Below are positions 60,407 to 62,039 of a DNA stretch of 64,000 bases, piece by piece. The notes beneath the pieces are model-generated. The model saw only the letters and a program-made list of their open reading frames with translations, was not told the origin of the DNA and did not search any database. A program made the position numbers and the translations under genes. The stretch lies in the NCBI RefSeq assembly GCF_022846255.1, contig NZ_AP025682.1; one strand, 5' to 3'. Positions within the stretch are counted from its first letter, which is position 1. Each line of letters begins with the position of its first letter. This DNA comes from Escherichia coli (GTDB lineage: Bacteria; Pseudomonadota; Gammaproteobacteria; Enterobacterales; Enterobacteriaceae).

Positions 60407-60990
60407 TGGCATTCAGAATGAGTGAACAAGCACGGACCATAAAAATTTATAATCTGCTGGCCGGAACTAATGAATTTATTGGTGAAGGTGACGCATATAT
60501 TCCGCCTCATACAGGTCTGCCAGCAAACAGTACCGATATTGCACCACCAGATATTCCTGCTGGCTTTGTGGCTGTTTTCAACAGTGATGAGGCATCGTGG
60601 CATCTCGTTGAAGACCATCGGGGTAAAACGGTTTATGACGTAGCGTCAGGGGACGAGTTATTTATTTCTGAACTCGGTCCGTTACCGGAAAATGTTACCT
60701 GGTTATCGCCGGAAGGGGAGTTTCAGAAGTGGAACGGCACAGCCTGGGTGAAAGATGCAGAAGCAGAAAAACTGTTCCGGATCCGGGAGGCGGAAGAAAC
60801 AAAAAACAGCCTGATGCAGGTAGCCAGTGAGCATATTGCGCCACTTCAGGATGCTGTAGATCTGGAAATCGCAACGGAGGAAGAAACCTCATTGCTGGAA
60901 GCCTGGAAAAAGTATCGGGTGTTGCTGAACCGTGTTGATACATCAACTGCACCTGATATTGAGTGGCCTACGAACCCTGTCAGGGAGTAA
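60406..60990 (+). CDS. tfa: tail fibre assembly protein Tfa
   Basis: 194 aa, lambda Tfa-like. Confidence 0.9.
60826..60968. repeat. direct repeat copy A (tfa 3' end)
   Basis: 143 bp, about 94% identical to 61875-62017; last 57 bp identical. Confidence 0.8.
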
Positions 60991-61004
60991 TCATTGGGAT
61001 TATG

Positions 61005-61053
61005 CCGCAGCACGTCTTAAGCAAGAACGTGCTGCGGTTGGATGCTATTTTTT
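61005..61053 (+). terminator. hairpin after tfa / 3' of the convergent methyltransferase gene
   Basis: 11-bp stem CCGCAGCACGT / ACGTGCTGCGG with T-run 9 nt downstream. Confidence 0.4.
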
Positions 61054-61713
61054 CCCTGAAGCGGAAAACATTACTACAGTACCTTGAACCTTGGTTTTAA
61101 CATTCTCGAAATGCTCTGAGAGTATATGTGTTAAGCCTTCTTCGGAATCTTTTGTGTTTGAAAAGATGCCTTTCTGATTGTAAATGCGCATCAGTTTTTG
61201 ACCGAAGCTATTGTGCACAACTCCATCGCCAAGAATTGTGGCTCCGTATAGAGTTCCATCGTCAGTTAAGGCCTGCGCCGCATTGCGTATTACACAGCTT
61301 TTTGTAGATATATTTCCAGGCAGACAGTGAAGAAGGTAAAACATGGAAATGGAATCAAATTGACCATGTAACGCCGCGGGATAAGGTTCAAAAACATCAT
61401 GGTTAATTTTATGTTTAATTTTTGATTCCCCAGCCCTTGTAGATGCCGCGTTCAGGCTAGCTTCGTTCAAATCCATTAAAGATATCAGACTACTCTCAGG
61501 TACGTGAGTAAGGTAAAACCCAGTTCCAACACCAATATCCAGATGGTTGTTACCTAAATGTTCCAGAAAGTGTGGAAGAAGGTGTTCCTTTGTAGGACAT
61601 CCCCATGCAAGCCGATTTGATACTCCCAAAACCCACCAGTCATAAAGCTTTAGGGTAAGTGGTGTGTAAATTTTAGCCCCATCATCTGTGTTTTTTTTCA
61701 TTAATTTCACCAT
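61045..61713 (-). CDS. class I SAM-dependent methyltransferase
   Basis: 222 aa with motif I LDIGVGTGFY; no DPPY/NPPY DNA-methylase motif seen; GC lower than flanking tail genes. Confidence 0.65.
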   Translation of the reverse strand: MVKLMKKNTDDGAKIYTPLTLKLYDWWVLGVSNRLAWGCPTKEHLLPHFLEHLGNNHLDIGVGTGFYLTHVPESSLISLMDLNEASLNAASTRAGESKIKHKINHDVFEPYPAALHGQFDSISMFYLLHCLPGNISTKSCVIRNAAQALTDDGTLYGATILGDGVVHNSFGQKLMRIYNQKGIFSNTKDSEEGLTHILSEHFENVKTKVQGTVVMFSASGKK

Positions 61714-61769
61714 GTTATAGTTTTATTTGTGAATTAAATCAATTATGGCGATGAATTACAAGGGGTTAA

Positions 61770-62039
61770 ATGCTGCCGCAGCATAGCGATATTGAAATAG
61801 CCTGGTATGCTTCGATACAGCAGGAGCCGAATGGCTGGAAGACCGTCACCACACAGTTCTACATCCAGGAATTCAGTGAGTATATTGCGCCACTGCAGGA
61901 TGCTGTAGATCTGGAAATCGCAACGGAGGAAGAAAGATCGTTGCTGGAGGCATGGAATAAATATCGGGTGTTGCTGAACCGTGTTGATACATCAACTGCA
62001 CCTGATATTGAGTGGCCGGAAGAACCAGACACAATGTAA
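61770..62039 (+). CDS. Tfa C-terminal fragment (remnant or short paralog)
   Basis: 89-aa ORF whose C-terminal 50 aa repeat the Tfa C-terminus. Confidence 0.5.
61875..62017. repeat. direct repeat copy B (tfa-like 3' end)
   Basis: 143 bp copy of the tfa 3' end on the far side of the methyltransferase gene. Confidence 0.8.

Follow-up and report, generated by a model that had tools for sequence, protein, structure and literature searches.

An intact copy of the DLP12-type tfa–ybcY–tfaX block, with a probable small-molecule O-methyltransferase gene between two tfa 3' ends, in Escherichia coli

The region is an intact copy of a module known from K-12 prophage DLP12

The region of interest lies in a 64,000 nt stretch of Escherichia coli contig NZ_AP025682.1 (hereafter, the window), and is an intact copy of the tfa–ybcY–tfaX module that is annotated in the DLP12 prophage of E. 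coli K-12; the arrangement is not new. The DLP12 locus of K-12 strain DH1—tfaD'–ybcY (frameshifted)–tfaX'–appY–ompT—agrees with the window in gene content, order and orientation, and aligns with window positions 60552–62016 at 97.7% nucleotide identity (99% in ybcY). The two loci differ in their degree of preservation: in K-12, tfaD is 5'-truncated, ybcY carries a frameshift, and tfaX has become a pseudogene, while the window carries a full-length tfa, an intact ybcY ORF, and a tfaX without an internal stop codon (Table 1).

Table 1. Features of the tfa–ybcY–tfaX block and its right flank (window positions).
Feature	Position	Strand	Basis
tfa, lambda-type tail fibre assembly chaperone, 194 aa, complete	60406–60990	+	ORF list; PHROG 105
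Repeat copy 1: conserved tfa 3' end, encoding the conserved C-terminal domain	60814–60968	+	Repeat alignment
Strong hairpin between convergent tfa and ybcY	61004–61037		Folding
ybcY, predicted class I SAM-dependent methyltransferase, 222 aa (longest ORF)	61045–61713	−	Pfam; PHROG 2132
Divergent ybcY/tfaX intergenic region, putative promoters	61714–61769		SELEX hexamers of K-12 located in the window; consensus scan
tfaX, chimeric ORF, 89 aa	61770–62039	+	PHROG 2341, 3893, 105
Second, weaker copy of the putative tfa terminator hairpin	62052–62088	+	Folding; alignment
'Post-tfa' sequence, right flank of the cassette	62094–62200	+	Directly follows the single tfa terminator in ybcY-less loci

The block is widespread. 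ybcY was found in 3,798 of 5,426 complete E. coli genomes (70%) and in 14 phage records, a query consisting of the full tfa–ybcY–tfaX block was covered to at least 80% in 1,495 of the complete genomes, and the protein cluster of the 222-aa YbcY has 6,589 member sequences. Phages that carry the block include PhiR26_1 (in which ybcY is annotated as 'putative uncharacterized protein YbcY'), PhiR29, PhiR30, PhiR49, PhiR68_2, 2G7b, ev243, Kati and Turner. Across related loci, ybcY is 98.4–99.9% identical, a similarity across hosts that could partly reflect recent spread. The gene occurs in several contexts: (i) after lambda-type stf–tfa (PhiR26_1, AF39), (ii) after stf–tfa–pin–ynaE (PhiR68_2, Turner), (iii) after unrelated fibre genes, with only a 3' remnant of tfa (2G7b, ev243, strain 10035776-3), and (iv) next to a tRNA-Arg gene, in a prophage remnant of which int'–tfa'–ybcY–ompT is left. 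The chromosomal genes that flank ybcY-carrying prophages also vary (dusA; yecD/aspS; folD with tRNA-Arg).

Taken as a whole, the explanation that we consider likely is that this block is a marker of the cargo ('b-region') end in lambdoid E. coli prophages of the DLP12 type, with ybcY as a moron encoding a small-molecule O-methyltransferase, the 3' end of tfa as an anchor for exchange, and tfaX as a by-product. The arrangement itself, as a standard and annotated feature of E. coli prophages, adds nothing new; ybcY, on the other hand, is among the commonest cargo genes of E. coli prophages and has been kept intact, apparently by purifying selection.

ybcY lies between two direct copies of the tfa 3' end, each with its own hairpin

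The first gene of the block is a complete tfa (E = 2.9e-101 to PHROG 105, 'tail fiber assembly') with ~93% nucleotide identity to lambda orf-194. An earlier note on this DNA reported that the last 143 bp of tfa recur downstream at about 94% identity, the final 57 bp being identical. Pairwise alignment of positions 60826–60968 with 61875–62017 bears out the recurrence (134 of 143 bases identical; 93.7%), and the identical tail, albeit at a length of 56 rather than 57 bases. Using MAFFT and a repeat search, the match can be extended to 155 nt (60814–60968 and 61863–62017; 92% identity), which is too long to be the product of chance. The two copies are direct, with a spacing of 1,049 nt. A second, short repeat (61024–61044 and 62073–62093; 90% identity) is found at the same spacing and in the same register, and corresponds to the 3' half of the putative terminator hairpin (repeat family D6). 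Hence, in each copy the tfa 3' end is accompanied by a hairpin of its own. An invertible segment of the Mu G or P1 C type was considered as the source of the two tfa ends and rejected: the copies are direct, not inverted, and the pin invertase, where present (PhiR68_2, Turner), is located upstream of the block.

The first hairpin is shared by the convergent tfa and ybcY, and follows the stop codon of the latter. It is predicted to be strong on both strands (+ strand: −24.4 kcal/mol for the centroid, −28.6 for the 76-nt MFE, z = −4.4; − strand: −23 kcal/mol, z = −5.3), and is probably a bidirectional terminator for the two genes, as judged by folding. The 77-nt stretch that holds the second hairpin (62034–62110) folds with −22.1 kcal/mol (z = −2.1). 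A consensus terminator scan of positions 60300–62500 called no terminator, such that the hairpins are visible only by folding; the first was missed because it has no adjacent U-run.

Both tfa 3' copies also match the Rfam model of a candidate sRNA, RF02111 ('IS009'), with scores of 229.5 bits (60749–60947, overlapping repeat copy 1) and 115.4 bits against a gathering score of 117. These matches are contained within protein-coding sequence, on the coding strand, and nothing in the locus suggests an RNA function for them.

tfaX is a chimera and is decaying

The second copy of the repeat had been described as a duplicated tfa 3' end, embedded in an 89-aa ORF that keeps the C-terminal 50 residues of Tfa. 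The repeat and the retained C-terminus are both present: the last ~52 residues of TfaX correspond to the Tfa C-terminus, from which they differ at three residues up to '...IEWP'. However, tfaX is not a simple duplicate. Positions 61770–61862 encode a PHROG-3893-like N-terminus, and positions 61863–62017 are the second copy of the repeat, a tfa 3' end that has diverged and that corresponds to positions 145–204 of the 239-position PHROG 105 profile (i.e., to C-terminal residues only). In Tfa proteins, the N-terminal domain, which binds the fibre, is variable, and the C-terminal domain is conserved (North et al. 2019, summarised in PMC9608196). TfaX departs from this architecture in that the N-terminal fibre-binding domain is replaced by a different small-protein family (PHROG 3893); its first 37 residues show 51% identity to the start of a 79-aa ORF from Klebsiella phage Kp4882-3. 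DinI was rejected as the source of the TfaX N-terminus, tblastn over the DinI gene giving only E = 0.1 at 38% identity.

In the PGAP annotation, tfaX is labelled as an incomplete tail fiber assembly protein, and in eight of ten related loci it is broken or altered. The lesions include a stop at codon 62 (three loci), a frameshift (one), a truncation (one), and a replaced C-terminus (three). tfaX is decaying, and would be a by-product in which the 5' end of another small gene became fused to the 3' end of tfa.

We also weighed a role for the block in tail-fibre biology, in which YbcY modifies Stf or Tfa, and/or TfaX hinders fibre assembly by superinfecting phages. The block sits directly 3' of stf–tfa, late read-through would be expected to transcribe tfaX in the sense direction, and TfaX of the window retains the complete conserved C-terminal domain of Tfa, for which a role in trimerisation has been proposed (PMC9608196). 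These points are set against several others that make such a role very improbable. The lesions listed above leave tfaX interrupted or without the C-terminal motif in eight of the ten related loci, and the proposed −10 hexamer of tfaX overlaps its start codon. ybcY runs antisense to the late tail operon, and hence to late transcription, and it persists where stf and tfa have been lost; its homologues stand alone on chromosomes with no phage genes nearby, in a family that reaches as far as fungi.

Junctions in related loci point to exchange at the tfa 3' end

The methyltransferase gene had been interpreted in the earlier note as a moron captured by recombination at the conserved tfa end. ybcY does have the traits of a moron: its base composition is distinct (GC of 40.5%; tfa, 47.9%; stf, 55.1%; J, 56.3%), and some relatives lack it and have its flanks directly joined. 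Two such ybcY-less loci were found, in Salmonella phage SPF_0923 and E. coli NCTC9967, and lambda has tfa without ybcY. In both empty sites, tfa and its hairpin are joined directly to the sequence found at window positions 62094–62200; SPF_0923 aligns with 61874–62201 and NCTC9967 with 61874–62178, in each case contiguous with a single tfa.

The left breakpoints in relatives map to window positions 60825, 60845, 60871, 60874 and 61005, and the right breakpoints to 61799, 61994, 62016 and 62149–62153. The majority fall within, or border on, one of the copies of the tfa 3' end or of the hairpin. Ayreon contains a scar with an internal deletion of ybcY. In 2G7b, ev243 and Ayreon, where the tail-fibre genes are unrelated, the left tfa 3' remnant moves with the block, which indicates that the upstream tail-fibre cassette was swapped, rather than that the methyltransferase gene was inserted.

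From the positions of the junctions, we infer recombination at the tfa 3' end. Since Tfa is variable in its N-terminal domain and conserved in its C-terminal one, the 3' part of the coding sequence, together with the hairpin, would be common to many phages, and could act as an anchor for homologous exchange. Exchange at this anchor would swap tail-fibre cassettes to the left and cargo to the right, and—judging by the junctions and the empty sites—could add or delete the ybcY block. Read in this way, the locus offers a clean example of a conserved tfa 3' end and terminator as a joint at which phages exchange fibre cassettes and cargo.

The idea of a moron acquired by homologous exchange is thus supported, but as an old and widely shared module: a noteworthy or recent capture in this particular phage does not fit with the presence of the block in K-12 DLP12 and in 70% of genomes. 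The capture reading had been set against the possibility of an arrangement conserved in all related phages. What we found goes far in that direction: the arrangement is largely conserved, but ybcY is absent from it in some relatives.

ybcY resembles other lambdoid morons (lambda lom and bor) and the cargo hotspot that follows the tail-fibre chaperone gene in P2-like phages, in that it is compositionally distinct, presumably autonomously transcribed and lytically dispensable, and placed at a module boundary beside tail-fibre genes. It differs in the nature of that boundary, which is a duplicated piece of the neighbouring gene (the tfa 3' end plus hairpin) rather than a clean intergenic insertion.

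ybcY has a putative promoter region of its own and appears to be under purifying selection

The start of ybcY is probably the second ATG of the ORF (M5, at position 61701, giving a protein of 218 aa), because homologues and PHROG 2132 begin there (E = 2.7e-156 over residues 5–222) and M5 is invariant. We propose that ybcY is a stand-alone lysogenic-conversion (moron) gene that would be transcribed from its own sigma-70 promoter region, with the tfa hairpin as terminator. In K-12, the ybcY/tfaX spacer was identified as a divergent constitutive-promoter site by genomic SELEX with the RpoD holoenzyme, and is flagged for H-NS (PMC3946193). Matching of sigma-70-like hexamers gives a candidate ybcY promoter on the − strand (TTGATT-17-TATAAC; 61742–61714) and an alternative candidate in the same spacer (TTAACC-16-CATAAT; 61769–61742), the basis being in vitro SELEX and hexamer matching in K-12. 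Binding of H-NS may keep ybcY largely silent.

ybcY is intact in nine of the ten loci examined. Its pN/pS of ~0.19 (pairwise differences sum to 87.5 synonymous and 58.5 non-synonymous), drawn from only 17 variable sites in nine sequences, shows ybcY to be under apparent purifying selection.

These results bear on the possibility that the block is functionally inert debris: ybcY would hitch-hike beside selected cargo (ompT) and a recombination-prone tfa end, with neither ybcY nor tfaX doing anything for phage or host. Retention of ybcY in decayed prophages, often near ompT, could indeed be hitch-hiking. The K-12 gene has a frameshift and that of Ayreon a deletion, neither with a consequence on record, and a K-12 ybcY mutant was like the wild type in the one assay found (PMC2408971). 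The papers found to mention ybcY assign it no function. PADLOC assigned no defence family to YbcY, TfaX or the downstream 479-aa ORF; the only YbcY match was marginal and to a methyltransferase domain (mad2; E = 7e-4, 16.6 bits), and TfaX had none. The decay of tfaX and the H-NS flag at the ybcY promoter region also favour debris. Nevertheless, we regard this explanation as unlikely: the nine intact copies include that of the remnant from which nearly everything else has gone, the pN/pS is low, full-length copies number in the thousands, and the YbcY family has many invariant residues, conserved across the Enterobacterales and beyond. Moreover, ybcY is also found in prophages without a nearby ompT (AF39, strain 10035776-3).

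YbcY is probably a small-molecule O-methyltransferase

Between the two tfa ends, the earlier note had placed a 222-aa class I SAM methyltransferase gene of lower GC on the opposite strand, and had favoured a small molecule, protein or RNA over DNA as substrate. The enzyme class holds. YbcY matches the Pfam families Methyltransf_12, 23, 25 and 11 (E = 2e-9 to 5e-5, with Methyltransf_12 at 2e-9), and both LDIGVGTG (residues 58–65) and D81—motif I (D/E-x-G-x-G-x-G) and the acidic residue that ends strand 2, respectively—are invariant in 25 homologues. The AF2 model (pLDDT 90.3, pTM 0.86) has the alternating strands and helices of the seven-stranded beta-sheet fold, and Foldseek matches it to many class I methyltransferases with a probability of 1.00. 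YbcY is accordingly best described as a putative soluble, single-domain class I SAM methyltransferase.

The likely substrate is also not DNA. The DNA-methylase motif [DNS]PP[YFW] was not found in YbcY, the 222 residues of which contain no PP dipeptide, and no DNA methyltransferase was seen either among its Pfam families or among its top 50 fold matches. In the PDB, its best fold matches are without exception methyltransferases of small molecules or lipids. Among its close relatives are fungal O-methyltransferases of small molecules: a Foldseek search of AFDB50 returned full-length fungal proteins at 36–47% identity and TM ~0.9, among them UniProt 'vrtF', and 'Methyltransferase verB', which aligns over 228 columns with an rmsd of 1.8 Å (36% identity; TMq 0.91, TMt 0.89). 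Further fungal relatives are at 40–47% identity. The likeness to VerB comes from this Foldseek match; by sequence, an E-value (4e-48) was obtained for the homologue in Aspergillus wentii. DovB, the counterpart of VerB, O-methylates the hydroxyl of an alpha-pyrone, and is homologous to AurB, CtvB and AstB (PMC12312803).

By sequence and predicted fold, the closest characterised relative of YbcY is thus the fungal alpha-pyrone O-methyltransferase VerB/DovB, and for this reason YbcY is probably a small-molecule O-methyltransferase. Like YbcY, the fungal enzymes (AurB, CtvB, AstB and VerB/DovB) are single-domain proteins of the Methyltransf_12 type with ~220–240 aa. Unlike ybcY, which is solitary in its prophage and has no biosynthetic neighbours, their genes belong to polyketide synthase clusters and their substrates are defined. 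The characterised members of the family act on the enolic hydroxyl of alpha-pyrone polyketides, and YbcY would most probably O-methylate a small molecule in the lysogen, rather than DNA or the tail fibre. The link to pyrone O-methyltransferases rests on 36–47% identity plus fold, and the substrate class is an extrapolation, as the surroundings of ybcY contain neither a polyketide synthase gene nor any other gene of a pathway; at 36% identity, the regiochemistry of VerB/DovB is not transferable to YbcY.

Other searches were less specific. NCBIfam gave only sub-threshold matches (CpaM, RquA and PmtA; 16–18 bits against cut-offs of 175–390) and no functional assignment, and against the PDB, single-sequence and profile searches gave only weak, generic matches to juvenile hormone acid methyltransferase and UbiG. 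In Enterobacter, Salmonella and Yersinia, homologues with 56–68% identity are encoded by lone genes in chromosomal surroundings that are not phage. Neither around these genes nor around closer homologues in Citrobacter and Salmonella did a conserved neighbour hint at a pathway, and the more distant representatives carry generic names, with one confirmed fungal member.

An alternative substrate is suggested by the fold. YbcY could be an N-methyltransferase directed to the membrane, akin to PmtA or to the phosphoethanolamine methyltransferases. It would then methylate phosphatidylethanolamine, or the phosphoethanolamine that decorates the envelope, and thereby remodel the cell surface alongside Lom, Bor and OmpT. 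Its best PDB fold is the phosphatidylethanolamine N-methyltransferase of R. thermophilum (8ys9; E = 1.5e-12), Plasmodium phosphoethanolamine methyltransferases are in the top ten, the weak NCBIfam match to PmtA is to the Legionella protein, and nearby prophage cargo genes encode envelope proteins. In addition, an N-terminal helix that is rich in Trp (W26, W27) contains a Tyr-x7-Tyr that is invariant in the YbcY family; its two tyrosines, Y16 and Y24, resemble the Tyr10/Tyr17 pair of Rt-PmtA (PMC11446283). However, YbcY and 8ys9 share only 15–17% identity with a TM of 0.61–0.65, values that are equalled by dozens of unrelated small-molecule methyltransferases, and the PmtA model (NF045882) scores 16.3 bits against its cut-off of 390. 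Judged by eye from motif spacing rather than by superposition, His117, Ser120 and His147 of Rt-PmtA have no evident counterparts in YbcY. The fungal polyketide O-methyltransferases are far closer (36–47% identity, TM 0.9). E. coli is not known to produce phosphatidylcholine or methylated forms of phosphatidylethanolamine, which also counts against an enzyme of this type. Overall, we find N-methylation of membrane lipids improbable, and retain O-methylation of a small molecule as the preferred activity.

The homology to fungal pyrone O-methyltransferases provides a concrete biochemical hypothesis that can be tested for YbcY. Its most specific form is speculative, and we consider it rather unlikely: YbcY may methylate an enolic or phenolic compound encountered in the environment or the gut, such as a toxin or signal that resembles a pyrone, quinolone or coumarin, and so give lysogens an advantage in chemical resistance or signalling. 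If true, this would be a kind of lysogenic conversion not yet described for lambdoid phages.

The cargo downstream of the block differs between loci

To the right of the block, the window and its relatives part ways: the window carries a low-GC ORF of 479 aa, while K-12 and relatives carry appY or an alpha/beta hydrolase gene, and ompT. The ~490-aa hypothetical ORF/alpha/beta hydrolase of PhiR26_1, 2G7b and ev243 was considered as a counterpart of the 479-aa ORF and rejected, as BLASTP against the PhiR26_1 ORF found no similarity. A P2-like prophage has the 479-aa ORF as well, following its gpG (tfa).

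The ybcY–tfaX block is a long-known prophage module

The end of the window is occupied by the tail end of a lambdoid prophage, the ORFs of which are listed below.

ORFs at the tail end of the prophage, in window coordinates
Feature	Position	Strand	Product
J	53463–56846	+	1,127 aa
lom	56914–57513	+	199 aa
stf (side tail fibre)	57572–60406	+	944 aa
tfa	60406–60990	+	194 aa
ybcY (methyltransferase ORF)	61045–61713	-	222 aa
tfaX (short tfa-like ORF)	61770–62039	+	89 aa
low-GC ORF	62434–63873	+	479 aa

A megablast search of phage records placed the same block in PhiR26_1, PhiR29, PhiR30, PhiR49, PhiR68_2, 2G7b, ev243, Kati, Turner and 'phage 204576'; in PhiR26_1 the methyltransferase is annotated as 'putative uncharacterized protein YbcY'. 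The K-12 DH1 counterpart is the DLP12 prophage, where nohD is accompanied by a tfa that is truncated, a class I methyltransferase gene with a frameshift, a tfa fragment interrupted by a stop codon, appY, ompT and envY—that is, the classical tfaD–ybcY–tfaX–appY–ompT region. Since the block is shared by phages and DLP12, and both genes have existing PHROGs families (2132 for ybcY, 2341 for tfaX), the arrangement is already known, annotated and extremely common, an identity that the earlier note overlooked. Of 5,426 complete E. coli genomes, 3,798 contain ybcY at 95% identity or higher, some of them in as many as four copies; it also matches 14 phage records. The whole tfa–ybcY–tfaX query is covered to at least 80% in 1,495 of the complete genomes.

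The repeat unit comprises the tfa 3' end and a probable terminator

The tfa 3'-end repeat reported from the sequence alone, at about 94% identity, is real: pairwise comparison of 60826–60968 with 61875–62017 gives 134 identical positions of 143 (93.7%). The identical tail also exists, at 56 bp rather than the 57 bp previously given. With looser ends, the repeat covers 155 nt at 92% identity and a spacing of 1,049 nt. An additional repeat in the same register (61024–61044 and 62073–62093), missed previously, forms the 3' half of a GC-rich hairpin lying downstream of each stop codon; the repeated unit thus includes the probable terminator, and is more than coding sequence. The first hairpin is predicted to fold strongly on both strands (-24.4 kcal/mol for the centroid, z = -4.4, on the + strand; -23 kcal/mol, z = -5.3, on the - strand) and ends at 61037, 7 nt from the methyltransferase stop codon (61045), and hence looks like a bidirectional terminator shared by tfa and ybcY.

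Both repeat regions also draw matches to the candidate sRNA family RF02111 'IS009' in Rfam, which has a gathering score of 117: 60749–60947 (+) clears it at 229.5 bits, and 61793–61996 (+) falls just short at 115.4 bits. Both are within ORFs and on their coding strand; in effect, this 'sRNA' family is the conserved C-terminal coding region of tfa.

Junctions in related loci cluster at the tfa end

Among relatives, the block occurs (i) behind a lambda-type stf–tfa (the window, PhiR26_1 and strain AF39), (ii) behind stf–tfa–pin–ynaE (PhiR68_2 and Turner), and (iii) behind unrelated fibre genes (2G7b, ev243 and strain 10035776-3), with no more of tfa than its last ~100–120 bp, a non-coding remnant on the left side of ybcY. 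One stump consists of int'–tfa'–ybcY–ompT only, beside a tRNA-Arg gene. The chromosomal flanks vary among loci (dusA; yecD/aspS; folD and tRNA-Arg). Homology to the window begins at 60825, 60845, 60871, 60874 or 61005, and stops at 61799, 61994, 62016 or 62149–62153; most of these breakpoints fall within, or border on, the copies of the tfa 3' end or the hairpin.

Two empty sites were found, in Salmonella phage SPF_0923 and E. coli NCTC9967. Each carries a complete tfa and hairpin, followed directly by the sequence that in the window lies downstream of the tfaX hairpin (62094–62200). Lambda likewise has tfa and lacks ybcY. Phage Ayreon has a scar (2739–3087 of its locus) in which a remnant of the tfa 3' end, with the hairpin and the terminal 36 nt of ybcY, is fused to the region upstream of ybcY and the beginning of tfaX. 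The missing ybcY body is equivalent to approximately window positions 61081–61739; the scar is an internal ybcY deletion and shows that a viable phage can do without ybcY.

Tfa proteins, as outlined in a summary of North et al. (2019) in PMC9608196, combine an N-terminal fibre-binding domain that varies with a C-terminal domain that is conserved; this is why the tfa 3' coding end is common to otherwise different phages. The simplest reading of the junction pattern is that this conserved end and its hairpin act as a joint for homologous exchange. Exchange at the joint would swap fibre cassettes on one side and cargo on the other, while exchange between the direct repeats could delete the ybcY block. 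The proposal that the methyltransferase is a moron captured at the tfa end holds in so far as ybcY is a moron with tfa-end homology at its boundaries; the second copy is better described as a chimeric relic.

ybcY is maintained and most likely encodes a small-molecule O-methyltransferase

Across the ten related loci compared, ybcY is intact in nine, at 98.4–99.9% identity. The 17 variable sites (pairwise sums of 87.5 synonymous and 58.5 non-synonymous differences; pN/pS ~0.19) and a 222-aa protein cluster of 6,589 member sequences indicate, at the level of sequence, that the gene is maintained; we give lower weight to ybcY being an inert hitch-hiker. Its start is likely M5 (61701), because homologues and the PHROG profile begin at this invariant residue; the promoter proposed for K-12 ybcY (TTGATT-17-TATAAC) ends just ahead of the first ATG. 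The proposed promoter stems from in vitro evidence, genomic SELEX with RpoD holoenzyme, in which the ybcY/tfaX spacer is entered among the constitutive promoters as a divergent site with an H-NS flag (PMC3946193).

The product is a single-domain class I SAM methyltransferase (Pfam Methyltransf_12, E = 2e-9; AF2 model pLDDT 90) in which motif I (LDIGVGTG) and D81 are invariant among homologues. The DNA-methylase PP motif is absent, in agreement with the original assignment as a class I enzyme other than a DNA methylase. Neither the curated NCBIfam models nor PADLOC gave a match above threshold. The PDB fold neighbours consist entirely of methyltransferases acting on small molecules or lipids, with phosphatidylethanolamine N-methyltransferase 8ys9 at the top, followed by juvenile-hormone acid and phosphoethanolamine methyltransferases; at TM ~0.6 and 15–21% identity these matches are generic, and a PmtA-like activity is accorded lower weight.

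AFDB50 gives a sharper picture: many fungi have full-length relatives (36–47% identity, TM ~0.9). Among them are the UniProt entries 'Methyltransferase verB', matched at 36% identity with TMq 0.91 and an rmsd of 1.8 Å, and 'vrtF'. The VerB counterpart DovB O-methylates an alpha-pyrone polyketide hydroxyl and is homologous to AurB, CtvB and AstB (PMC12312803). Exhaustive HMMER searching returned 1,321 representative clusters; 195 reach E ≤ 1e-30, and these include an Aspergillus wentii protein (E = 4e-48). Homologues at 56–68% identity (Enterobacter, Salmonella, Yersinia) stand alone on the chromosome, with unrelated genes around them and none from phages, and closer ones (80–90%; Citrobacter, Salmonella) sit in island-like contexts; a role in modifying the fibre is also weighted lower. 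On the basis of its fold and family relatives, notably the fungal pyrone O-methyltransferases, the ybcY product is most likely a small-molecule O-methyltransferase acting in the lysogen. The family link provides a useful lead on a gene that ~70% of E. coli genomes carry.

tfaX is most likely a chimeric, decaying relic

Only the last ~52 residues of tfaX are Tfa-like (PHROG 105, profile positions 145–204). The first 37 match PHROG 3893 and share 51% identity with the beginning of a 79-aa ORF of Klebsiella phage Kp4882-3 (3004–3243 of that locus). This ORF is probably an intact version of the gene that supplied the 5' part of tfaX, to which the end of a tfa was joined. The 130-aa ORF that comes next looks, by eye only, like a UmuD/LexA-type peptidase.

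Eight of the ten loci have a broken or altered tfaX: codon 62 is a stop in three (K-12 among them), the C-terminus is replaced and lacks the APDIEWP motif in another three, 2G7b has a frameshift, and the Ayreon copy is truncated. The full C-terminal domain is kept only in the window and strain AF39. PGAP labels tfaX an incomplete pseudogene, and its proposed -10 hexamer overlaps its own ATG. Together, these features make tfaX most likely a chimeric relic in decay.

The cargo downstream of tfaX

The 479-aa ORF (34% GC) is predicted to span the membrane in several segments and contains an AHSHG motif that resembles those of serine hydrolases. Its Pfam matches are weak (Ser_hydrolase and Hydrolase_4, E ~0.05), NCBIfam and PHROGs gave none, and PADLOC returned only a chance-level match (Cas6, E = 0.046). 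It recurs once in the 5,426 complete E. coli genomes, at 99.7% identity, in strain TB06052, where it lies in a P2-like prophage (7213–8652 of that locus), with gpG, the tail-fibre chaperone gene, on one side and the tail sheath gene on the other. The slot after gpG is a hotspot for cargo and defence genes in P2-like phages. The 479-aa ORF is a candidate for a cargo or defence gene that is as yet uncharacterised. In PhiR26_1 the same place is taken by an ORF of ~490 aa, which was considered as a counterpart and is unrelated; its 2G7b and ev243 equivalents are annotated as alpha/beta hydrolases.

The cargo junction, 62153–62222, is specific to the window. Homology to ybcY-bearing prophages such as that of AF39, in which a DinI-like gene comes next, stops at 62153, and homology to the P2-like prophage cargo gene region begins at 62222. 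No complete E. coli genome was found to carry ybcY–tfaX together with the 479-aa ORF. Nor does any cover window positions 17000–25000, the left end of the prophage, to at least 80%, and this prophage mosaic is therefore unrepresented in the complete-genome set. The left end adjoins chromosomal genes of the dsdC/dsdX region and carries the lambda exo/bet recombination genes.
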